From a virus: 64,000 bases of DNA. The translations under genes and the position numbers were made by a program. The stretch is taken from positions 13,042 to 77,041 of the IMG/VR virus record IMGVR_UViG_3300046492_000369; one strand, 5' to 3'. Shown here one piece after another: positions 2,887 through 60,308 of this stretch (positions are counted from its first letter, which is position 1; every line of letters starts with the position of its first letter). The notes below the pieces were generated by a model that was not told where the DNA came from, ran no database searches, and saw nothing but the letters and a program-made list of their open reading frames with translations.

Positions 2887-4742
2887 TTGGCTTCTACCAG
2901 CTTCAGGATCTGAGCAACCTGCTCTTCAGTCACCCCAAGCACCGTCCAGCTCTTCTTGGCCTTTTGCTTGATGGTCAGGATAGCCTGAGCTACACCAACC
3001 GAAGTAATCCCAATAGCCAGCATCTTCTGGATGCGTTCCTTGGGTCCACCTTCCCCCAGCTCGACACCATTAACGACACGCTTGGTCGATGCCATGACTG
3101 GTGCGTCATCCCGGGCATCATTCAAGACATCAGCACGGGTGTCTTCGCTACCGTCCAGTTCAACTTCCATGACCTGAGGTGTAGGCTTAACTGGCTTGGC
3201 TACTGTCGGTTTCGGGAATGGCTTTGGTGGTTTGGTCTTAGTACCTGGCTTAGTGGTAGGATCAGGAATGCCGAGGCGATCCCAGCCAACTTTGGCTGTT
3301 TTTTTAAAGATCACTAACGCATCCAGATCGTCACGGTGGCCACTAGCCTGCCACTTAGCATACATGGCTTGAGCCTGCTCCTTACGGGACAGCTGTACCT
3401 TTTCTTCTTGCTGTTCGACCTCGGCCACCACTTCTTTCGGGTCAGTGGGTTGGTCCAGTGTCTCAGCTTCAGCATTACCGATCGCTTCCGCTTGAACAGG
3501 TGCTACCAAAGTAGCTTTCACCTCTAGCTTCATGGTTCCCAGCTTCTTCACCTGCACACCGCCACCATGCTGTGCCGTGATACGCACTTCATGGGTCTTG
3601 CCGATGTGCTGACCGCTAAGTGCCTTAGCTAGCAGCTGCTTGCCATCTTCCAGCTTGGTGATGGGCTCATTACGATTTAGTAAGTTGTACTGTTCCTTGG
3701 TGAGCTCCGCGATGATGTGATAACCACAGACACGCATCTTGTTGGCGTCGTAGGTCGGCACAGCGATCACGTCTTCCGGAGTCAGCTTGGCCAGTACGCA
3801 CACGTCGCCATTGAAGCCCCTGATGTAGCCACGACGGGCCACATGCAGGCCGTTGGAGCACTCGTTGTTGCGGTTGTGGTCCACCAGCTTCTCATCCATG
3901 CAGACGTAGGCCCCGACCCACTGTTCTACCTTCTGGGTATGGCAGTCCACGTACGTGTCCTTGCCATAGGTACGAAGTACCTTGTAGATCAGGATGGTGC
4001 CATCATCCGCGATTGGCAGGTCAGCTCGCTCCAAGAACTTGAGCAGGTCTTCCACCGAGTGACTGCGTTTGTCGATTACTGAAGCCAGCCGCTGTAGGAA
4101 CGCTTCGACACCCTGAGTCGAACCGAGCTTGGAGGCCCGGGCGAACTGGGTCTTGATCCGTTCCATACCCGGGATGATGGTATCCCCTACCACGGCGATG
4201 ATGGTGTCCGGTGCCGCAGCATGGACTTCATCATTGCGGTCATTGGGAGTTTCCCCATTGGCTTCCACCACATTGCCCTGCTTGCCGACCGTGACTTCAT
4301 GGAAGTCTGGTGACGATACCGGCACAGCATGCTGCATGATCTCGGCCACGACAGACTGGGTCTGTTCGACTTTGGATGGCATCTTGGCAGCCATTACTGC
4401 TTCAATACTTTCCTTCGTTGTCGGAATGTGGCCGAGCGCCTGTTCCGGGACCACCTCTACTGGCTTCGGTGTGAACAGGTTCTTCAGCCTTTCCTTGGCC
4501 ACCCTGAAGAACTTGACCACGCCCCCGGATTTCTCCTCGAACTGGGCATAGCTGTTGTCCTCCGGTTGGTCGATGGCCACGTAAGCATGGTCCCTCTCGA
4601 CCAGCTGGGGCGTGACGGCATCGACGATCCGACGCAGGCGCGGATCGCCTTGGGGAATGACGATCGTACTGCCATCGTCCTTGTACAGAGTGAGATTGCG
4701 GGTATCGACCACTGCCGCAACGATACGAATGAGATTACTCAT
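2883..4742 (-). CDS. rIIB: rIIB-like protein
   Basis: LPIADDG..L.YK, CSNGLHV and KMRVCGY motifs of rIIB; directly follows rIIA. Confidence 0.9.
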   Translation of the reverse strand: MSNLIRIVAAVVDTRNLTLYKDDGSTIVIPQGDPRLRRIVDAVTPQLVERDHAYVAIDQPEDNSYAQFEEKSGGVVKFFRVAKERLKNLFTPKPVEVVPEQALGHIPTTKESIEAVMAAKMPSKVEQTQSVVAEIMQHAVPVSSPDFHEVTVGKQGNVVEANGETPNDRNDEVHAAAPDTIIAVVGDTIIPGMERIKTQFARASKLGSTQGVEAFLQRLASVIDKRSHSVEDLLKFLERADLPIADDGTILIYKVLRTYGKDTYVDCHTQKVEQWVGAYVCMDEKLVDHNRNNECSNGLHVARRGYIRGFNGDVCVLAKLTPEDVIAVPTYDANKMRVCGYHIIAELTKEQYNLLNRNEPITKLEDGKQLLAKALSGQHIGKTHEVRITAQHGGGVQVKKLGTMKLEVKATLVAPVQAEAIGNAEAETLDQPTDPKEVVAEVEQQEEKVQLSRKEQAQAMYAKWQASGHRDDLDALVIFKKTAKVGWDRLGIPDPTTKPGTKTKPPKPFPKPTVAKPVKPTPQVMEVELDGSEDTRADVLNDARDDAPVMASTKRVVNGVELGEGGPKERIQKMLAIGITSVGVAQAILTIKQKAKKSWTVLGVTEEQVAQILKLVEAK

Positions 4743-4753
4743 GGGGCTTCCTT

Positions 4754-7201
4754 TTAGTTTTTAAGTACGAGAGCCAGGACATCAATGGCAGCCTTGGCTA
4801 GCTGGGGAGAGGTATCGCTCGAATTCAACAAACGAGCTAAACCAGACTTATCAAGGATACTCAACAGTTCACTATCCTTGACCTTTTTAATGAACAGTGC
4901 ATTCGCTGGATCGAGAGGAATAGCATTCAAATATGTGCGCACACTGGCCATATCAGGCGGGATGTTGTAGCGATGATGGGAAATCAAGTCCTTCCAGAGG
5001 TGCACATACTTCCTGTCTTCCTCGGTCAGATTATTCACCAAGCCAAATTCCTGTCGCAAGATCTCAGTGTTGTACACCATTTCAATGACTGAAGTGTTAT
5101 AGAAGCAGTCGGAATAGTACGTCGTCAAAGCCCGGTTCACATCGAATGCCCAGTATTCCCTGATAGTCGGACTGTTCAGCATGTAATCACAGACCTTTTG
5201 CCGAACATAGTCCGTCATCTCGGGAATATTCTTGCCCTTCCACTTCGCATGCATGGATGAATTGGTGGTAATGCCACCTTTATCCCCGAACAATTCGACG
5301 ATATAAAAAGACGCCAATTCATCCCAATGATCCAACACCAAGGTCGAAGTGGTCTTATTGATTTTTACTTCTACCAAGAACTCAGGATTCTCAATACGGG
5401 GTGCCGTATCCAGTCGAGACAATGTAGTATTAATATGCATGCGAACATTCTTGGCTGGCACGACTGACTTCAGGCACGCCAAGCCTTTCTGTACTGGCTT
5501 GCGTGCAGAATAGTCCCGCTTTTCTGGTTCTTCTTCCCAATCCTGTCGTGTAGTCAGGTCCACCACAGTCATACCACTAGCTTGGAAGAACGTAAGTGCT
5601 GCTTCCTGCTCGGCCTTCTTCATGCCAACGTGGTACACCAGGAAGCCCTCGTACTTGCCGAGCTGCTTGAACACGTCATGACGGAAGATCCGCAACTTGA
5701 GATCTCGGCGTGATTTGGTGAGTACGACGATGTTGCGCAGGTAAGGCAGTGTGGCAAACAAATGACGTGGAGCCACCATGTTGAAGGCCACCATGGGCGG
5801 GGTGCTGGTGTCGTAGGAATTGCTAGGTGCATTGGCGTCACCGGAATCGAACACATACAGCTTCTTGTGGTCGATGCCCGCCTTGATCAGCTTGACGACC
5901 AGCGGGCCCACCACACAACGCTGCAGCCAGTCGTTGGGTTCATGACCACGCTGGAAACCAGCTTTCACCTTGTCCAGATGCCGCAGGAAGGTCTGCACCG
6001 TGCCACGCTGCAGCAAGCCAGCCACCACCATCTTCTCCAACCGGAACTTGATGTCTTGCTTGCGGAAGTCCAACGACTTCGGATAGTTCGATTCCATGTA
6101 CCGCTGAGACATGGTCAGCAGATCGCTGATATGGGTCGGATGGGTGGAGTCTCCCTTGATCGGCAGGCATTCAGCCGTGGTCAAGAGATCGGCAATACGC
6201 TTGTCGGCTACCGCATTTTCCACTGCAGCTTGGGCGAACTCGCTGCAGGCTTCCTTGAAGGTCGTGTTGAGCGTATCGACGAAGCCACCCAGCAGCATCT
6301 TCAGCGTCTTGATGGTGTGCTCTTGCATCGACAGGGATTCTCGGCTTGGGGTCACCGAGATGCTGTGCGGGGGAGCTTGGAAGATGATGTTGTAGTTCCG
6401 GCTGTGGCGACCCAAGGCTTCGAGATGTGCCTTGATAATCTTGTATTCGTGGCCGATCTCCGAAGCCGTATCTACCGGATAGATCACGTTCCCATACCGC
6501 ACCATAATGTCGGTTTGGTTCTCGATGAATTCGCCGGGTGCGATCAGGTAGTTGGCTTTGGTCGTATCGAAGCCAAGGGTTTCCACTTGCTTCCCGTTGA
6601 AGAGCACATTCATGTCGCCGTTCTTGGCGATACGCTGCACCAGCCGCATGAAGCGATTGCGATTCATGTTGTTGAGGATGCGGATCGTCACCTGCAGGCC
6701 GGTATCCGTGGTTGGGAACGAAGCGATCGGAATGATTCCTGGCTTGCCCATGGCCTGTGCCGACGACTTGGAAAGGTTGTAAATTGTTTTCACCCCATCG
6801 TGGCAGGATATCACCTCGAAATGGTCAGTGTAGGCAAAGGGTGCCTTGCAACCCAGACCGAAGCCACCAGTCTGCTGGCCATCGTTCTTTTTGGTCGAGT
6901 TGCCGTAGGTGCCGTAGATTAGCCCCATGTCATCCTTGTGGATGCCCCGGCCAAAGTCCTTGATGATGAACTTATCGTCGGTGATGGTGACTTCCACTGG
7001 CTTGTCGGTATAACCCGCTTCGATATGGGCATCCCATGCATTGCACAGCACTTCACGCACCACAGCCAGAATCTGATCCTTGTACAACGTGGACGACAGG
7101 ATGTTGAAGAACTCGGCACTGGACGAGATACCGAATTCAATGGGCTGGCTGCCACCAATGATAGCGTGCGTGATATGGTCTTTTTGATGTGCTACTTGCA
7201 T
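4754..7201 (-). CDS. rIIA: rIIA-like protein (GHKL/HATPase N-terminus)
   Basis: ILSSTLY..., REVLCNAWDAH, DFGRGI, STK...GGFGLGCKAPFAYTD. Confidence 0.9.
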   Translation of the reverse strand: MQVAHQKDHITHAIIGGSQPIEFGISSSAEFFNILSSTLYKDQILAVVREVLCNAWDAHIEAGYTDKPVEVTITDDKFIIKDFGRGIHKDDMGLIYGTYGNSTKKNDGQQTGGFGLGCKAPFAYTDHFEVISCHDGVKTIYNLSKSSAQAMGKPGIIPIASFPTTDTGLQVTIRILNNMNRNRFMRLVQRIAKNGDMNVLFNGKQVETLGFDTTKANYLIAPGEFIENQTDIMVRYGNVIYPVDTASEIGHEYKIIKAHLEALGRHSRNYNIIFQAPPHSISVTPSRESLSMQEHTIKTLKMLLGGFVDTLNTTFKEACSEFAQAAVENAVADKRIADLLTTAECLPIKGDSTHPTHISDLLTMSQRYMESNYPKSLDFRKQDIKFRLEKMVVAGLLQRGTVQTFLRHLDKVKAGFQRGHEPNDWLQRCVVGPLVVKLIKAGIDHKKLYVFDSGDANAPSNSYDTSTPPMVAFNMVAPRHLFATLPYLRNIVVLTKSRRDLKLRIFRHDVFKQLGKYEGFLVYHVGMKKAEQEAALTFFQASGMTVVDLTTRQDWEEEPEKRDYSARKPVQKGLACLKSVVPAKNVRMHINTTLSRLDTAPRIENPEFLVEVKINKTTSTLVLDHWDELASFYIVELFGDKGGITTNSSMHAKWKGKNIPEMTDYVRQKVCDYMLNSPTIREYWAFDVNRALTTYYSDCFYNTSVIEMVYNTEILRQEFGLVNNLTEEDRKYVHLWKDLISHHRYNIPPDMASVRTYLNAIPLDPANALFIKKVKDSELLSILDKSGLARLLNSSDTSPQLAKAAIDVLALVLKN

Positions 7202-11769: not shown

Positions 11770-13109
11770 GCGAAGTCTCCAACGAGATAAATATAATGAC
11801 GTGCCCTACTTACGGCTACATACATCAAGCGAGCAATCAGGTCACCCAAGTTACACCGGCTCACATCGTCCAAGTCGATGAATACTTTGTCGTAAGTGGA
11901 GCCCTGACTCTTGTTGATGGTCTGCGCAAACGCTGCACGCAGGTCGAACCAGCATTCCTCGATTTCGGCCAGCAGTCGATATTCGTTGAGGGCTTTGGCT
12001 CGCTTCACGCGCTCATTCTTGGCAGCCAAGGACTTGGGGAAGAATGCCCGGATGCTGTAATCGACCGTGACCCAGTTGCCGACGACATCGTGGTACTCGA
12101 CATCGGGTTCGATGCAGGTGATGTACACCAGTTGATCGGTCTTGATACTGTGCTTGCCTACGATGACATGCTTGTTGCATACCACGTAGTCACCCACTGC
12201 AAAGTGCGGGTCACCGGAAATGTGGTTATTCACCGCATGGTTGTAGTCGATCACGCACTTGTTGGTCCAGCCAAGGATCTTCGAATCGTTGTAACGCCAG
12301 TCGTTACGGGTGAATTCGTCGATGATCCTGTCCTCGAAGTCACTGCGCGGCAGATGGACAATATGATGGCCATCTGGCTTGAAGTTAAACCACTGACCAC
12401 TACTCACCGTATTTCGGAACTGGGTAGCTAGTGTGATGATCGGGTTGCCTTCAGCCTGACGCATCACCTTCTCCAGTTTGGCCGTGGTAAAGCCTGCATC
12501 GAATACTGGAGTGTTGTTGTACTTCACAGGAGGAAGCTGGGCCGGATCCCCGATGAACATGATCTTGCAGTTCTGGGTCTTCTTGAAGATCGTGGTCAAG
12601 AGCTTACTGTCGATCATGGACGCTTCGTCGATGATCAGGATGTAACCGAATTCCGGGATTTCACTGCGAGGTACCAGTTCAGTATGGCCGGTACGGTAGT
12701 CCTTCGACACCCGCAAACCAAGGAAGCTATGAATAGTCCGCACTTCCATGCCGGTGATCTGGGCCAGTGCCTCGGCTGCCTTGTTAGTGGTAGCTGTCAG
12801 CTGAATCTGGTAGTCGAACATGCTCGGGTTGACCAGCTTAGCCATCTGCAAGTACTTGGGCATGTTGTCCATCAGAGTCTTGACCAGCGTGCTCTTGCCG
12901 GTGCCAGCGTAACCTTGCAGTACAAAGACCTGCTCGATCGGGCTGATCAGGAAATTGATGAACATATTCTTGGCTTTTTCCTGGTCCTCGGACAGGATGA
13001 AGGCTGGAGCTGTGACATCGACTTCTTCCGGAGCAGGAGGCCACTCACTGCGATCAAACAGATCATCTATCGCTGCATCTTCTTCTTCAGGCGAGTTAAA
13101 GTCACTCAT
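11766..13109 (-). CDS. SF1 DNA helicase (Dda/RecD-like, N4 gp37-like)
   Basis: GYAGTGKS, TIHSFLGL, IIDEASM, GDPAQLPPV, TINKSQGST, YVAVSRAR. Confidence 0.95.
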   Translation of the reverse strand: MSDFNSPEEEDAAIDDLFDRSEWPPAPEEVDVTAPAFILSEDQEKAKNMFINFLISPIEQVFVLQGYAGTGKSTLVKTLMDNMPKYLQMAKLVNPSMFDYQIQLTATTNKAAEALAQITGMEVRTIHSFLGLRVSKDYRTGHTELVPRSEIPEFGYILIIDEASMIDSKLLTTIFKKTQNCKIMFIGDPAQLPPVKYNNTPVFDAGFTTAKLEKVMRQAEGNPIITLATQFRNTVSSGQWFNFKPDGHHIVHLPRSDFEDRIIDEFTRNDWRYNDSKILGWTNKCVIDYNHAVNNHISGDPHFAVGDYVVCNKHVIVGKHSIKTDQLVYITCIEPDVEYHDVVGNWVTVDYSIRAFFPKSLAAKNERVKRAKALNEYRLLAEIEECWFDLRAAFAQTINKSQGSTYDKVFIDLDDVSRCNLGDLIARLMYVAVSRARHYIYLVGDFA

Positions 13110-20840: not shown

Positions 20841-21012
20841 ATTTTTCTCTCTCTGAAGTGGGAAGCACCAACGCCAGCATGGTGTTGTGCTTACGTTGTA
20901 GTTTGATGAGCCTGCGCAGCTCACTGCTGGGAGTGTTCTTCACACCCCGTTTTTGAAGGAATGAGATCCGTTGATTAACCTCAACCGGTGTGAATGCCTT
21001 CACACCTTTCAT
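20827..21012 (-). CDS. Small basic hypothetical protein
   Basis: 4-bp overlap with the upstream ATPase gene. Confidence 0.5.
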   Translation of the reverse strand: MKGVKAFTPVEVNQRISFLQKRGVKNTPSSELRRLIKLQRKHNTMLALVLPTSEREKYGRR

Positions 21013-21806
21013 GGCATGGCCAGAGTTTTCTGGAAAGTTGTCTTAGCTACTTCTTTAGGCTTGAGACCACCTTCAATAAAGTACTGATGCAGCAGAGTGT
21101 TGATCATGCGTACACCAATGGTGTTCTTCTCGTGGTTTTCGGTCAAAACCTTCATGATGGACGTAACTACCAGATCTTTGCTGACAGTAGGAATCAGAGT
21201 CAGATAATGGGCCAGTAGTTTGCTGTTCTCCAGAATATTCTGCATCTGTTCAAGGCTGACTTTATCCATTCCATAAGCCAAGCCAACACGACCAAGAAAT
21301 TCTGTCTTCAAACCGAATTCACGCAGCCTGTCGATCGTAATGTTCTCTTCACCATTGAAAGCACCAGCAAAGATGAATAAGACATTATCTGTCTTGATGT
21401 TATGGTACTTGCCGTAGTCAGCCGAGATGTTGGCCAGTCCTTCAAGCGCTTTCAGGAACTCATTCTGCACGCCATTGGTGGTTTCATGGGCCAATGCGGA
21501 GTTGGAGTTGCCACTGATGAACAGCTTGTCAAACTCATCAACGAAGCACACCACTGGACGGCCACCATACTGCACCAATGGAGCCAGTGCCTTGGACAGG
21601 GAATTGCCTGCGGTGCCTTCCTTGGTCAAGCCAGCCGCATTGATCTCAACCATGGGGAGGTCAAGCTCTTCGCACAGCATGCCGATGTTGTGGCTCTTGC
21701 CTGAACCGGAGGGACCGGTGACGATGAAATGCGGACGGATCTCGCCTTCACTGTTGAGGTAGATGTTAAGGATGCGACGGATGCTGTCGATGGACTTCTG
21801 GCTCAC
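21009..21806 (-). CDS. ClpX/HslU-like AAA+ ATPase
   Basis: GPSGSGKS, VDEFDKL, GVQNEFLKALEG, TDNVLFIFAGAF, GLKTEFLGR. Confidence 0.85.
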   Translation of the reverse strand: MSQKSIDSIRRILNIYLNSEGEIRPHFIVTGPSGSGKSHNIGMLCEELDLPMVEINAAGLTKEGTAGNSLSKALAPLVQYGGRPVVCFVDEFDKLFISGNSNSALAHETTNGVQNEFLKALEGLANISADYGKYHNIKTDNVLFIFAGAFNGEENITIDRLREFGLKTEFLGRVGLAYGMDKVSLEQMQNILENSKLLAHYLTLIPTVSKDLVVTSIMKVLTENHEKNTIGVRMINTLLHQYFIEGGLKPKEVAKTTFQKTLAMP

Positions 21807-23654: not shown

Positions 23655-24896
23655 TCAGGACAATGCATAATTACTTCCCCTGATTAGTTGCCCCAAGTTG
23701 TTATTCAGTTTGGTGTAGGTACCTGGCACACCATGAATCTGGCTCAGAATGTCAGCCAGCAGCTCGCTCTCAGCCAGCTCAGCAAAGATGTTGATGTAGT
23801 GTTGGCGCAGGTGGTTCATGTGATTACCGCCACACTTGAACTCGTCATGGACGGTCACCACTGGGAAGGGCTTGTGCTTCAACATCGAAAACACGATACC
23901 AGTCAGCCCTTCTAAATGCTGCGTGGAGAGCTGGTGCACGTTGTTGTCATTGACGTATGGGAGGATCACGACATCAGCGATGCCACTACGGTTGTACTGC
24001 TCGATGTAGTAGGCCAGCTTGGTGCCAGCCTTCACATCCAATGCCGTGCAGCTGTGATTCTGGCGTATGCTGAGCTCTGCCATCATTACATCGTAGGCAT
24101 TGTTCGCCATGGCTTCATCATAGTTGCAGCGACGCTGGATGCAGCGCAGGATGTAAGCATCGACACTGTGGATCACATTGGCAGCATTGGCCCGGCCCTT
24201 CTCTTCCGGTTCATTGACAGCAAAGTTGTAGGTGAACGAGGTGTGATCGAGCTCATCAATCTCGATGCGCGCGTCCTTGTCTACCATGACCTTGATCCGC
24301 GCATCATACCCGTCCGGCAGCTTCCATGCATGTACCAATGCATGAGGTTGCCAAGAATCCAACAGTTCCTGTAACAGGATCCACGCCCCTGGTCCGATGA
24401 TGCTGGCTGCTTCATAGAAGGCTGCCAGTTCCGGGGTATCTTCCCCGAAGATCTTCTTCGGTTCAGCCTTGGAGCCATACAAGGACTTCATGTAGGCATC
24501 CTTGGAGTCGTTCCTGCTTACCCCTGTGCTGACACCGAGGATGTCCTTCATGACCTCATTGAGCTCAGTATAGGCATCCGACCGCACATTCGGATCAACC
24601 AAGCCAGTGGCAGTAGCGCCCTTGATGCAGCCAGTGAGCACGCTCATGATCTGCAAGCCAGAACAGCAGGCATCCAGTCCAACCAGATGGCCGGTTGGTT
24701 CACCATTCAATACCTTGCGGATGGTCAGTACCGCCTTCATATACAGCGGCTTCTTGTCTGCTTTATCTGCCAATGCTTCTAATTGATGCAGGTTGTTGTT
24801 AGCCCATTCGATACGTTCTTCGAACAGCAATTTATCCAAGCCAAAATGATTAGCCAAATCAATCAGCAAGTATTCCCAGCCTGAGTATAAAACCAT
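23655..24896 (-). CDS. RNA polymerase II large subunit (N4 gp16-like, RNAP2)
   Basis: T7-type motif A GLDACCSG, motif B RNDSKDAYMKSLYG, ANVIHSVDA, motif C VHDEF. Confidence 0.95.
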   Translation of the reverse strand: MVLYSGWEYLLIDLANHFGLDKLLFEERIEWANNNLHQLEALADKADKKPLYMKAVLTIRKVLNGEPTGHLVGLDACCSGLQIMSVLTGCIKGATATGLVDPNVRSDAYTELNEVMKDILGVSTGVSRNDSKDAYMKSLYGSKAEPKKIFGEDTPELAAFYEAASIIGPGAWILLQELLDSWQPHALVHAWKLPDGYDARIKVMVDKDARIEIDELDHTSFTYNFAVNEPEEKGRANAANVIHSVDAYILRCIQRRCNYDEAMANNAYDVMMAELSIRQNHSCTALDVKAGTKLAYYIEQYNRSGIADVVILPYVNDNNVHQLSTQHLEGLTGIVFSMLKHKPFPVVTVHDEFKCGGNHMNHLRQHYINIFAELAESELLADILSQIHGVPGTYTKLNNNLGQLIRGSNYALS

Positions 24897-24908: not shown

Positions 24909-25139
24909 TTATAGTGGAATGTTCAGTACTAAGCAGAGCATCTTGATCTCTGCCGGGATATCTGAAAGATTAATTGGACTGGTATGGGATACCGTTATTA
25001 CGCGGTACCAGAATGCAGATTTATTGCCCCAATGATGTCCAAGCTTTTCTCGAATGATAGCGCCATAAGGAAGAAACTTTGGCCATTCATCGTATTCTCC
25101 ATACAGTTTGCCTTCGTAAAACACGATAACCTTAGCCAT
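24909..25139 (-). CDS. Small paralog E of the tandem array
   Basis: VIVFYEG...DIPAEIKMLCLVLNI; SD AAGGAG. Confidence 0.8.
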   Translation of the reverse strand: MAKVIVFYEGKLYGEYDEWPKFLPYGAIIREKLGHHWGNKSAFWYRVITVSHTSPINLSDIPAEIKMLCLVLNIPL

Positions 25140-25148
25140 AAGTCTCCT

Positions 25149-25367
25149 TTATAGATTCAATACCAGTGCCAGCATTTGAGTTTTCTTAGGTACATTATGT
25201 ACTGGGATAATTACTCCATCGGTGTTATACCAATTAGTTGGAATACCCATCAATGGTTGATAAGTACGATTGAACACATAGATATCATCTCTACATTCTG
25301 GTAGATCGTACCAATGATTAGATGATGCTATTACTTTGTCATTCTGAAATACTGTGAAGAGCGCCAT
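25149..25367 (-). CDS. Small paralog D of the tandem array
   Basis: FTVFQND...NVPKKTQMLALVLNL; SD AGGAG. Confidence 0.8.
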   Translation of the reverse strand: MALFTVFQNDKVIASSNHWYDLPECRDDIYVFNRTYQPLMGIPTNWYNTDGVIIPVHNVPKKTQMLALVLNL

Positions 25368-25375
25368 GTAATCTC

Positions 25376-25612
25376 CTATAGATTTAATACCAATGCCAGC
25401 ATCTGTAATACCTTGGGTACATCCTCGATTAATACTGGTGTCTTATCTGATCTGTACCATCGAGTGTATTTGTTTTCTGGGACATGGACATAAGCACCGT
25501 TATAGACCTCGTGATAATCCTCCATGGATCGTAGATATTGGTGATATTCCTTCCAGCTATCGAACTCACCGAATACCTGAGTTCCATAGAAGACCACTAA
25601 TTGCTTTGCCAT
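25376..25612 (-). CDS. Small paralog C of the tandem array
   Basis: LVVFYG...DVPKVLQMLALVLNL; SD AGGAGG. Confidence 0.8.
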   Translation of the reverse strand: MAKQLVVFYGTQVFGEFDSWKEYHQYLRSMEDYHEVYNGAYVHVPENKYTRWYRSDKTPVLIEDVPKVLQMLALVLNL

Positions 25613-25620
25613 GTAGCCTC

Positions 25621-25863
25621 CTATGGATAGACCAATGCGGTCATCTGATATTGTTTAGGTACTTCACCCAATTCCAATAGTTCCCATTGATTGCCTTTGT
25701 CACGTCCAAGCGTACTGTAGAACACACGCACCCATGCCCATTCAGTTCCAATCTTCTGACATGCGATGGTATCTACAGGTAATCCATAAGGCCGAGGCAG
25801 TGTTTGTACCACCAGCCCCAGCACCCTGCCATCCGGGTAGAACAGGATGAGATTTGATGCCAT
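25621..25863 (-). CDS. Small paralog B of the tandem array
   Basis: LILFYPDG...EVPKQYQMTALVYP; SD AGGAG. Confidence 0.8.
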   Translation of the reverse strand: MASNLILFYPDGRVLGLVVQTLPRPYGLPVDTIACQKIGTEWAWVRVFYSTLGRDKGNQWELLELGEVPKQYQMTALVYP

Positions 25864-25872
25864 TGGTTTCTC

Positions 25873-26154
25873 CTATGGATGGACGAGTGCGATCATCTGG
25901 AACTTCTTAGGTGGATCAGCACGACCGGGACCATAATGAACCCAATCTATCTGAAGAGACTTATCTGATTGGCTCCAGCTTGCCATTCTTAATTGGCTCC
26001 ATGGATCTTGTAATGGATAACCTTTTAGTTCAGGGTTATATGCCCATGTACCAATCGGATGGTCTATCTTATTGGGATATCCCATCCCTGCATATTCCAC
26101 AATGGTTCCATCAGGATAGAACAACAGCAGTCTAGTAACCACTTGGTACCCCAC
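25873..26154 (-). CDS. Small paralog A of the tandem array
   Basis: LLLFYPDG...DPPKKFQMIALVHP; start GTG 26154 or 26142, overlapping RNAP1. Confidence 0.75.
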   Translation of the reverse strand: MGYQVVTRLLLFYPDGTIVEYAGMGYPNKIDHPIGTWAYNPELKGYPLQDPWSQLRMASWSQSDKSLQIDWVHYGPGRADPPKKFQMIALVHP

Positions 26155-27070
26155 TCAAATATTCCTGATCAGCTAATTCGATCATGGCTTTCTTGAAGGC
26201 TGCTCCTTGTGGATTAATGTGATAACCCTGCGAGTAGATCCGACCACGCTTGTCTACCTTATGGGTCATGTAGAATACATTCCCCTGGCTGGCCATCAGG
26301 TCATACATCTGGTAGCTGTGACGCTTGAACATCTTCCAGTTGTCGATCTTCTCCGGTGTATCCAACTCATGCGTAGGCTCCTCTTCCACCTTGCACAGAA
26401 AGTCCAGTGCCAAGCTCAGTGGTACACGATTCATCAGGTTTAGCACATCGAGACACAGATCCCCATCGTGATGGTTACCTGATCCCAATACCAATGAATC
26501 ATTATGGGTCAGATAACCAGAGCAGAAATTACTCTTCAATTCCAATGGCTCAATCACCATGGGAGGCAGGCACCGGCTCTCTTCAATGAAGGTGATCAGT
26601 TTCTCGCTAAGTGGCATCCTGCTGATGATGCACAGGCTAGCCATGCGATCGGGCTTCACGATATCGAAGGCATCGGTATTACACAGTACGGCAATCAGTT
26701 CAGCAATGGTAGTAATGGCTTCCACCTTGTCACTGAACCGTAAACGTGATGCCATCTGAGCCGTTACTGCCGTGAACAGTTCTTCACGCTGGCAATAAGC
26801 AATACCAACGAAGATATCAGTCACCAGTACTTCAATGTCCATGTTCTTGAGCTGAGCAACACGGGTATTCTTGGAAGTGAACTCCTTGGTTTCACCATTC
26901 TTGGTGGTATAGGTGTAATGCGTATTAATATATTGTTCCACCAGCTTGATACCCTGCTGGACCTTCTTCTGCATGATGGGATCCGTTTGAATTGCATCAC
27001 GGATATATCCATCAATATGCTTGCGATTGAATCGCTTTTCATTGTGCTCTTGTACGATGTAATGGGACAT
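26132..27070 (-). CDS. RNA polymerase II small subunit (N4 gp15-like, RNAP1)
   Basis: LPPMVIEP, DKRGRIYSQGYHINPQG (DxRGR motif). Confidence 0.95.
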   Translation of the reverse strand: MSHYIVQEHNEKRFNRKHIDGYIRDAIQTDPIMQKKVQQGIKLVEQYINTHYTYTTKNGETKEFTSKNTRVAQLKNMDIEVLVTDIFVGIAYCQREELFTAVTAQMASRLRFSDKVEAITTIAELIAVLCNTDAFDIVKPDRMASLCIISRMPLSEKLITFIEESRCLPPMVIEPLELKSNFCSGYLTHNDSLVLGSGNHHDGDLCLDVLNLMNRVPLSLALDFLCKVEEEPTHELDTPEKIDNWKMFKRHSYQMYDLMASQGNVFYMTHKVDKRGRIYSQGYHINPQGAAFKKAMIELADQEYLSGVPSGY

Positions 27071-27073
27071 TAT

Positions 27074-27241
27074 TCACTCCTTGGCTTCTAGTTGAGCAAG
27101 TTCTTGTTTACATTTTGCGATCTCAGCCAAGAACACACGTATTTCTGTTGGAGTACTGAAGGCTAAATAACTCTCTAGTCTGTGAATATATTTGCGCAAT
27201 ATCCTCTTACGCTGCCAAATACGCCACCATTGCTTAATCAT
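27074..27241 (-). CDS. Small hypothetical protein (55 aa, not in the ORF track)
   Basis: AGGAGG SD; MIKQWWRIWQRKRILRKY... Confidence 0.6.
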   Translation of the reverse strand: MIKQWWRIWQRKRILRKYIHRLESYLAFSTPTEIRVFLAEIAKCKQELAQLEAKE

Positions 27242-27286: not shown

Positions 27287-27297
27287 GCCCGGAGGGC
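27287..27297 (-). promoter_or_regulatory. vRNAP-type hairpin promoter
   Basis: Template-strand GCCC-GGA-GGGC, matching the N4 C-GNA-G triloop; upstream of the RNAP II operon. Confidence 0.6.
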
Positions 27298-27371: not shown

Positions 27372-27405
27372 AAAAAGAACACCACCTTCCCCGAAGGGAA
27401 GGCGG
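27372..27405 (-). terminator. Intrinsic terminator after the Drc-like gene
   Basis: GC stem with cUUCGg tetraloop and U tract on the minus strand. Confidence 0.8.
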
Positions 27406-27415
27406 CAGCAGCATA

Positions 27416-27691
27416 TTACTCAGGCAGATCGAAGCCAGCCGATTCATCCGATACAGCCGGGTTGTACTCAACTTGCAGTTGAGCCAGCAGTACCTTGATG
27501 CGCTCCGGATCAGCCATCAGCCAGTCAGCCAGAGTGGCTTCGTTGGCATAGGCTTCACGCAGGGTGATGGCACCCAGCTTACGACGGCCACCATCCTTCT
27601 TCGGCAGGTAGAAGTTCAGGTAGCCCACGGCCTTCTTGTTGGCCGGGATATTGTTGGAACGAGCAGCAGCAGCAGGGCGATTGAATGCCAT
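27416..27691 (-). CDS. drc: Drc-like ssDNA-binding RNAP II cofactor
   Basis: K.A.GYLNF.LP.KDG...L motif, recalled from LUZ7 Drc; acidic tail; position just upstream of RNAP1. Confidence 0.65.
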   Translation of the reverse strand: MAFNRPAAAARSNNIPANKKAVGYLNFYLPKKDGGRRKLGAITLREAYANEATLADWLMADPERIKVLLAQLQVEYNPAVSDESAGFDLPE

Positions 27692-28964: not shown

Positions 28965-28975
28965 AGCCGGAGGCT
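28965..28975 (-). promoter_or_regulatory. vRNAP-type hairpin promoter
   Basis: AGCC-GGA-GGCT on the template strand in the early non-coding region. Confidence 0.55.
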
Positions 28976-29089
28976 TATAGTTTAGACCCACTATCCCAAG
29001 ACGCTGACTTCTGTAGGAAGTTGAGGCCCATGGTGCGCTGGTGCTAGCTATGGTCTGTCTTATTGTGTGTAATGTGTAGTGTGTGAAGT

Positions 29090-60293: not shown

Positions 60294-60308
60294 GTGCCCG
60301 GAGGGCAC
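60294..60308 (-). promoter_or_regulatory. GGA-triloop hairpin (vRNAP-promoter-like)
   Basis: GTGCCC-GGA-GGGCAC between the primase and gp44-like genes. Confidence 0.4.

Follow-up and report, generated by a model that had tools for sequence, protein, structure and literature searches.

In N4-like phages (Schitoviridae), the genes for the two subunits of the phage RNA polymerase II (RNAPII), RNAP1 and RNAP2, can be separated by 0–8 'non-related' genes, an organization termed 'G7C-type' (Amgarten et al. 2017, PMC5418858). Such spacer genes have also been noted elsewhere (PMC3915230), and homing endonucleases are often among them (PMC5418858). Cultured relatives carry in this slot a gene for an HNH endonuclease (phiA41), for an unrelated protein of 75 amino acids (aa; Efbeekayvirus) or for the 107-aa LUZ7 gp21. 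Both this spacer layout and tandem arrays of fast-evolving early phage genes are already known. Here, we analysed a 64,000-nt stretch (the window; positions 13,042–77,041 of IMG/VR record IMGVR_UViG_3300046492_000369) in which five small open reading frames (ORFs), genes A–E, lie between RNAP1 and RNAP2 at positions 24,909–26,154. The record, of which the window is a part, is a complete genome of 77,041 bp with direct terminal repeats, and the phage is an uncultured N4-like virus; a rhizosphere metagenome is the sole listed source of the DNA and may be its origin. On the basis of sequence comparison and structural models, A–E belong to an undescribed family of 65–100-aa α/β proteins from one branch of the N4-like phages. 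As in the 'G7C-type' organization, small genes that vary between phages split RNAP1 from RNAP2. In the 'G7C-type' papers, however, the spacers are unrelated hypothetical genes and no paralogous family, motif or fold is reported; the spacer genes of EE36P1, an example given in PMC5418858, did not match the array family.

The five genes between RNAP1 and RNAP2

The genes are listed below in operon order.

25873..26154, minus strand: gene A, subtype A/B, 93 aa (from GTG at 26154) or 89 aa (from GTG at 26142), overlapping the end of RNAP1
25621..25863, minus strand: gene B, subtype A/B by BLASTP and tree, 80 aa
25376..25612, minus strand: gene C, commonest subtype, 78 aa, VFYG..EVYNG..WYR.D.TPVL.EDVPK..MLALVLNL
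25149..25367, minus strand: gene D, diverged copy of subtype C by BLASTP, 3' repeat of 46 nt and tree, 72 aa, lowest GC content of the array (0.36)
24909..25139, minus strand: gene E, subtype E (..TPIN..DIP.EIKMLCLVLNIPL), 76 aa, last gene before RNAP2

The initial annotation, made from the sequence alone, had reported five consecutive ORFs of 72–93 aa between the RNAPII subunit genes; all were found at these coordinates on the minus strand, and the C-terminal motifs that it quoted are exact. It had also called the five divergent paralogs. Pairwise BLASTP comparisons, extending over nearly the full length of the proteins, gave E values from 2e-4 to 3e-13 (A and B, 5e-9; C and D, 2e-10; C and E, 3e-13; B and E, 2e-4), and sequence comparison thus confirms A–E as true paralogs with homology beyond chance. 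A profile built from the five sequences matches exactly five places in the 77-kb genome, namely A–E. All five ORFs, within the family length range of 65–100 aa, encode an N-terminal hydrophobic strand ending in F/Y-Y and the C-terminal helix motif [DEN]-[VIP]-P-[KA]-x-x-[QK]-M ... L-[AC]-L-V. The description of conserved ends and a variable middle agrees with the models and the column conservation presented below; within subtypes the middles, which had been called largely unalignable, do align, A/B and C/D/E doing so end to end.

At each junction the stop codon is fused to a GGAG Shine–Dalgarno (SD) site, with stop-to-start spacers of 8–12 nt (CCATAGGAG / CTATAGGAG / CTATAAAGGAG, then 4–7 nt, then ATGGC). 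The uniform junctions and ATGG starts described earlier are therefore present, with the exception of gene A, which has no ATG start, begins with GTG and overlaps RNAP1; the protein database holds its 89-aa form (GTG 26142). With each stop codon joined to the following ribosome-binding site, A–E are set up for translation coupled to the RNAPII subunits.

The 3' ends of C and D, previously described as near-identical, share 24 of 26 nucleotides and are 80% identical over 46 nt, and A and B have in common a 43-nt stretch that is 79% identical. From these 79–80% identical gene ends of 43–46 nt, recombination within the array is plausible. The ends were also considered as a DNA or RNA element; this was rejected, as distant members retain the peptide motif in different codons. 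The array is AT-rich, as had been noticed: the GC content of its genes is 0.36–0.48 compared with 0.52 for the whole window, dropping to 0.38–0.42 across C–E between flanks of about 0.48–0.55.

Predicted fold and extent of the family

Gene C was modelled in AlphaFold2 from a 139-row alignment, with a predicted local distance difference test score (pLDDT) of 94.1 and a predicted template-modelling score (pTM) of 0.83; the model has the topology strand-strand-helix-helix-strand-strand-helix. The model of gene A (72-row alignment; pLDDT 91.0, pTM 0.79) comprises five strands followed by a C-terminal helix, and the middle helices are absent. In the models C and A share a scaffold consisting of an N-terminal hairpin (hhVFY), a Trp strand and a hydrophobic C-terminal helix beginning D-[VIL]-P-[KP], and differ in the middle segment, which is helical in C and made of strands and loops in A. 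Comparison of the two indicates that the conserved ends are the first hairpin and last helix of the scaffold and that the variable middle is a replaceable insert, in keeping with the single small fold with a variable region that had been anticipated. The D-V-P-K sequence at the start of the C-terminal helix is read as a helix cap. This helix was modelled with high confidence as part of the fold, which gives no sign that it is a free docking helix; a shared docking helix had been suggested in the initial annotation.

Searches of the PDB with Foldseek returned nothing at E ≤ 0.001 for either model. With VIA-align, run against 48,161 chains, the best Z scores were 4.0 (C) and 4.4 (A), below the usual noise level of the tool, and a search of the ESM Atlas gave no informative row. 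Weak rows recurred for the C-terminal region of topoisomerase II/GyrB (Z 2.7–3.3; Atlas TM 0.39–0.45) and were seen for phage neck proteins (Z up to 4.4); neither likeness was trusted. The fold predicted by the models is thus one without a solved relative.

The family was defined by two alignments, A3 and A8. Five homologues outside this genome came from a word-indexed search of 5.8 billion proteins. When 1.84 billion representatives were searched exhaustively with a profile, 189 clusters scored E ≤ 0.001 (22 at E ≤ 1e-10), and nearly all are 65–100 aa long. In the 139-member alignment the mean identity is 25%, with a near-invariant Trp (W52) and likewise F8, Y9, P59, P66 and L74; the consensus is ..VFYA..L..E...E.YNG.Y.Y...WYR.D.TPVL..DVPKELR.L.LLL. 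Columns of high conservation lie in two strands, the first and the one with the Trp, and in the C-terminal helix; positions 18–33 and 43–50 vary freely. None of the A–E proteins matched Pfam, PHROGs, NCBIfam or PADLOC at the curated cut-offs, and the 139 members have no Pfam, PHROG or PDB sequence match. BLAST with single members against 50,697 phage records gave zero matches; profiles alone reach cultured phages. Descriptions of the family, the motif, the subtypes or the predicted fold were not found in the libraries or literature searched. Of the suggestion that this is an undescribed system, the absence of a known family or fold therefore stands, whereas the family is not peculiar to this phage, given the 189 clusters and the reach into cultured phages. 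A weak search for fused or longer forms of the family found none. Separately, one database protein (P0074, 163 aa) contains two family domains in tandem, representing either a real fusion or a missed stop between neighbours.

The best BFVD rows in Foldseek include hypothetical proteins of the N4-like Pseudomonas phages Littlefix, phCDa and phi176. Littlefix has seven genes of 85–100 aa (gp49–52 and gp54–56) upstream of RNAP1 with ends of the form ..P...M..L.GA, and the Litunavirus Ab09 has ORF17, 19, 20 and 21 on both sides of RNAP1 with similar ends. An iterated profile gave E values of 9e-11 for Littlefix gp52, 4e-7 for Ab09 ORF17 and 1e-4 to 1e-2 for several others; whole-genome scans with the broad profile A8 placed Littlefix and Ab09 proteins at 1e-4 to 1e-2. 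Alignment of the family with these proteins in hhalign gave a probability of 79% (E 1.6e-5) over the final 35 columns. The Littlefix and Ab09 hypothetical proteins are therefore probable remote homologues, judged from their sequences. Like the family, they are tandem, early and small (66–117 aa), adjoin RNAP1/RNAP2 and end in ..P-x-x-[LIV]-x-M/A-x-x-L-[IV]-G.. with a Trp strand before it. Unlike the family, their significance is confined to the C-terminal ~35 columns, several were matched by motif only, and the Littlefix array lies upstream of RNAP1 rather than in the position seen in the window.

LUZ7 gp21 (107 aa, Luzseptimavirus) occupies the same slot, as a single gene, and resembles the family in its N-terminal LIFF..G, its W.W strand and ..VPKEVRLMKTL.. 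near the C-terminus. It differs in a longer C-terminal tail, and its scores are low (profile E 0.15–0.18; hhalign probability 0.4%). LUZ7 gp9, gp11 and gp21 have a likeness to the family by eye and no significant match; LUZ7 gp14 (Drc) and N4 gp2 gave no match to the family profiles or E > 5. N4 gp8, a replication inhibitor, was rejected as a relative, as the likeness is by eye only and no profile matched it. The Littlefix and Ab09 homologues are all annotated as hypothetical, and in the literature no function was found for the Littlefix, Ab09 or LUZ7 counterparts.

The slot in relatives and the evolution of the array

Using RNAP1 as the synteny bait, 29 IMG/VR loci with 49–72% identity were compared (identified where necessary by numbers such as L013, the closest relative). 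The gap between RNAP1 and RNAP2 ranges from 2 to 1604 nt and holds 0, 1, 2, 3, 4 or 5 copies of the family. The locus is thus not invariant, and no paper assigning it a function in relatives was found. In two 100%-complete relatives (60–62% RNAP1 identity) the polymerase genes are adjacent, and a broader profile of 46 sequences found no member genome-wide; the same profile found none in the N4 genome.

The subtypes were examined in a tree of 54 members, which is poorly resolved overall. It recovers three groups that include genes of the window. In one (support 97), A and B are joined by the genes at the first position in L010 and L013; in another (support 89), C and D fall together with C-type genes from L010, L011 and L013; and in the third (support 94), E pairs with the gene at the last position in L013. 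These groupings point to three old subtypes, in the order A, C, E in the closest relatives, with B and D as extra copies; separate expansions are seen in other lineages (L027 and L017). These sequence relationships show that the array evolves through gene birth and death. The expandable array of the initial annotation is consistent with this pattern, and the census by profile and synteny that it had suggested yielded 0–5 copies in the same slot and three subtypes in a kept order.

Divergence within the family is fast. Orthologues in the two closest relatives are 33–56% identical, compared with 65–73% for RNAP1/RNAP2; genes C and E are each 56% identical to their L013 orthologues, that of E being in the same, last, position. 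In 15 of 16 relatives, family genes have a lower GC content than the polymerase genes beside them, and the GC content at third codon positions (GC3) is also mostly lower (e.g. 0.48 versus 0.71 in L013). Variable copy number, faster divergence and lower GC and GC3 together form the pattern of a dispensable accessory family. The genes are probably dispensable, fast-evolving accessory genes, and are probably exchanged between phages.

The composition of the slot also bears on whether the genes might be near-neutral passengers, the slot being a recombination or homing hot spot in which duplication and hitch-hiking maintain the family although the phage gains little from it. The low GC3 relative to the flanks in most relatives, the patchy presence of the family, the endonuclease genes found in the slot (PMC5418858) and the 79–80% identical gene ends, a possible substrate for unequal crossing-over, would fit such a history. 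However, the five ORFs are all intact, with an SD site for each, the scaffold residues F, Y, W, P and L are conserved over 139 members at 25% mean identity, the AlphaFold models are confident and the three subtypes keep a constant order across relatives. Together these features indicate purifying selection on folded proteins, and we regard the passenger explanation as very improbable. Slot homing endonucleases were rejected as an identity for the family itself: there is no HNH, GIY-YIG or LAGLIDADG Pfam match, the proteins are below the size of such enzymes and the modelled fold bears no relation to theirs.

Other genes occur at these loci. Unrelated ORFs adjoin family members in some of them, encoding an AP2-domain protein, a ROS/MucR zinc-finger protein or a 112-aa product. 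The zinc-finger protein is a 211-aa product of L027:4203–4838 (E 6e-6), and L033:5980–6642 encodes a 220-aa protein with a weak AP2-domain match; the AP2 domain is of the type found in HNH-AP2 endonucleases. In L013 an unrelated 63-aa ORF (6051–6240) lies between the last family member and RNAP2 and has no counterpart in the window. In L015 (6124–8350) the first ~80 codons of RNAP2 (6124–6366) are split from the rest (from 7352) by ~1 kb containing an ORF of 224 aa, GIY-YIG-like at its N-terminus and without a Pfam match; the probable causes are insertion of an intron or endonuclease, or splitting of the gene. Family members are also found directly upstream of RNAP1 (L024:4617–4922, L032–L035 at about 4700–4968 and L036:4706–4966). 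Their presence there in several relatives makes the address of the family 'around RNAP1', extending beyond the slot between the subunits.

The RNAPII operon and possible functions

The features around the array are as follows.

27416..27691, minus strand: Drc-like gene for a single-stranded DNA (ssDNA)-binding RNAPII cofactor, 91 aa, upstream of the operon (BLASTP with LUZ7 gp14, Drc: E 1e-11, 31% identity)
27380..27407, minus strand: intrinsic-terminator-like hairpin of 12 pairs and a T run, closing the Drc transcription unit
27287..27297, minus strand: candidate early promoter hairpin of the virion RNA polymerase type, with the template-strand sequence GCCC-GGA-GGGC, 46 nt ahead of the operon's first ORF
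27074..27241, minus strand: 55-aa ORF, first gene of the operon, without family assignment and outside the array family
26132..27070, minus strand: RNAP1, small subunit of RNAPII (N4 gp15-like), 312 aa, identified by tblastn
23655..24896, minus strand: RNAP2, large catalytic subunit of RNAPII (N4 gp16-like), 413 aa, 65–68% identical to RNAP2 of relatives

The operon is tightly packed in the order 55-aa ORF, RNAP1, A, B, C, D, E, RNAP2, and neither a terminator nor a σ70-like promoter of note was found inside the array. This single, tightly coupled unit is consistent with the earlier proposal of co-expression with RNAPII. RNAP1 shares 45–48% identity with the annotated RNAP1 of Pectobacterium, Pseudomonas and Klebsiella N4-like phages (tblastn). 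In N4, early transcription is carried out by an injected virion RNA polymerase. By analogy the operon would be transcribed early by such an enzyme, and the hairpin at 27287–27297 is a candidate for its early promoter, in the manner of the N4 virion RNA polymerase promoters. An exact second copy of this hairpin lies at 60296–60306 and a similar one at about 28975–28986 (AGCC-TCC-GGCT; AGCC-GGA-GGCT on the template strand). On the template strand all three are short GC stems capped by a GGA loop; they precede minus-strand early genes and are candidate virion RNA polymerase promoter hairpins; the hairpin at 27287–27297 folds weakly (z −0.6), and the folding statistics are weak for two of the three. 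The Drc-like gene and its strong terminator-like hairpin form a separate unit directly upstream of the operon; in LUZ7, Drc (gp14) is an ssDNA-binding RNAPII cofactor (PMC7145618). A gene for a ClpX-like ATPase lies on the minus strand at 21009–21806 of the window; it has a homologue in Ab09 (51% identical) and is absent from the closest IMG/VR relatives examined (L013, L021 and L023) and from Littlefix. A link between the hydrophobic C-terminus of the family and this ATPase was rejected, as L013 has no ATPase and yet has three family members.

The position of the genes suggests that they could encode RNAPII accessory factors, i.e. interchangeable paralogs that use the shared scaffold or helix to bind the RNAP1/RNAP2 heterodimer or Drc and modulate assembly, promoter choice or processivity. 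Their place is between the subunit genes, to which they are coupled in translation; RNAP1 has members or remote homologues beside it in many relatives and also in Littlefix and Ab09; and the ends of the proteins are conserved. Against this, the family is absent from two complete close relatives and from N4, its copy number varies from 0 to 5, its orthologues diverge much faster than the polymerase, and unrelated genes fill the slot in other lineages (PMC5418858; the phiA41 HNH gene and EE36P1). Furthermore, LUZ7 RNAPII was purified as RNAP1 plus RNAP2 and bound its cofactor Drc in the absence of the slot protein gp21 (PMC7145618). These absences and the LUZ7 result imply that the family is not needed for RNAPII, and a role as an RNAPII partner, which the initial annotation had listed as a candidate, is considered unlikely.

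Instead, we favour, with a confidence close to even, a reading of A–E as dispensable early binders of host targets that act in takeover or counter-defence, roles that the initial annotation had listed as candidates. In copy number, divergence and composition they look like accessory genes confronted with variable targets. From their sequences and arrangement, the proteins would be made alongside RNAPII at the start of infection and would bind host proteins stoichiometrically; the paralogs would differ in the surface that they display on a shared scaffold, and their number would follow the targets met across hosts. Comparison may be made with the mode of action of small early phage proteins that bind host proteins, such as the anti-CRISPR AcrIF9 and T4 Dmd, which resemble the family in size (60–100 aa), early expression, fast evolution and patchiness and are compared here as to mode of action, not membership. 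They differ from it in having no sequence similarity and noise-level structural scores (AcrIF9, Z 3.2; Dmd, Z 2.6); RnlB, at Z 3.8, was also at noise level. Several points weigh against host-target binding. No similarity to any known anti-defence or takeover protein was found (fold-search rows at Z ≤ 4.4, noise level), and the proteins are mildly acidic (median pI 5.5) with nothing to suggest DNA mimicry. Even the distant cultured phages have the family next to RNAP1/RNAP2 (in Littlefix upstream of RNAP1, in Ab09 on both sides), for which a polymerase-linked role would likewise account, and the early timing is carried over from N4.

Variable copy number, fast divergence and an early operon would equally be expected of proteins directed against rival phages or mobile elements, for example in superinfection exclusion, with variable surfaces that follow rival phage proteins. 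Homing endonuclease genes in the slot of relatives place the region within reach of genetic conflict between phages (PMC5418858). The proteins nevertheless lack membrane or nuclease features and a Pfam match to known exclusion proteins, and nothing distinguishes this explanation from binding of host targets; its probability is judged to be very low. The shared scaffold raises a further proposal, which is doubtful: A–E could be a modular adaptor set with a new fold, in which the C-terminal helix and hairpin are a common handle for one partner (RNAPII/Drc or a conserved host hub) and the variable middle picks targets or promoters. If this were true, a phage that gained or lost paralogs would be redirecting one common machine as infection begins.

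New inhibitors of bacterial machines, like new counter-defence factors, come mainly from small early phage proteins, most of which are uncharacterized. The present analysis defines a sizeable unannotated family of this kind, with at least 189 clusters and a confident predicted fold without a solved relative. Since remote homologues occur in cultured Pseudomonas phages (Littlefix and Litunavirus), its function is directly testable; members of the Litunavirus group have been evaluated for therapy (e.g. PMC9729221). The 'G7C-type' observation is also extended, as the spacers in this lineage belong to one gene family, compared with the unrelated spacer genes published previously (PMC5418858). The family has the signature of an accessory family, with variable copy number, fast divergence and three old subtypes, and keeps a fixed address beside the RNAPII genes.

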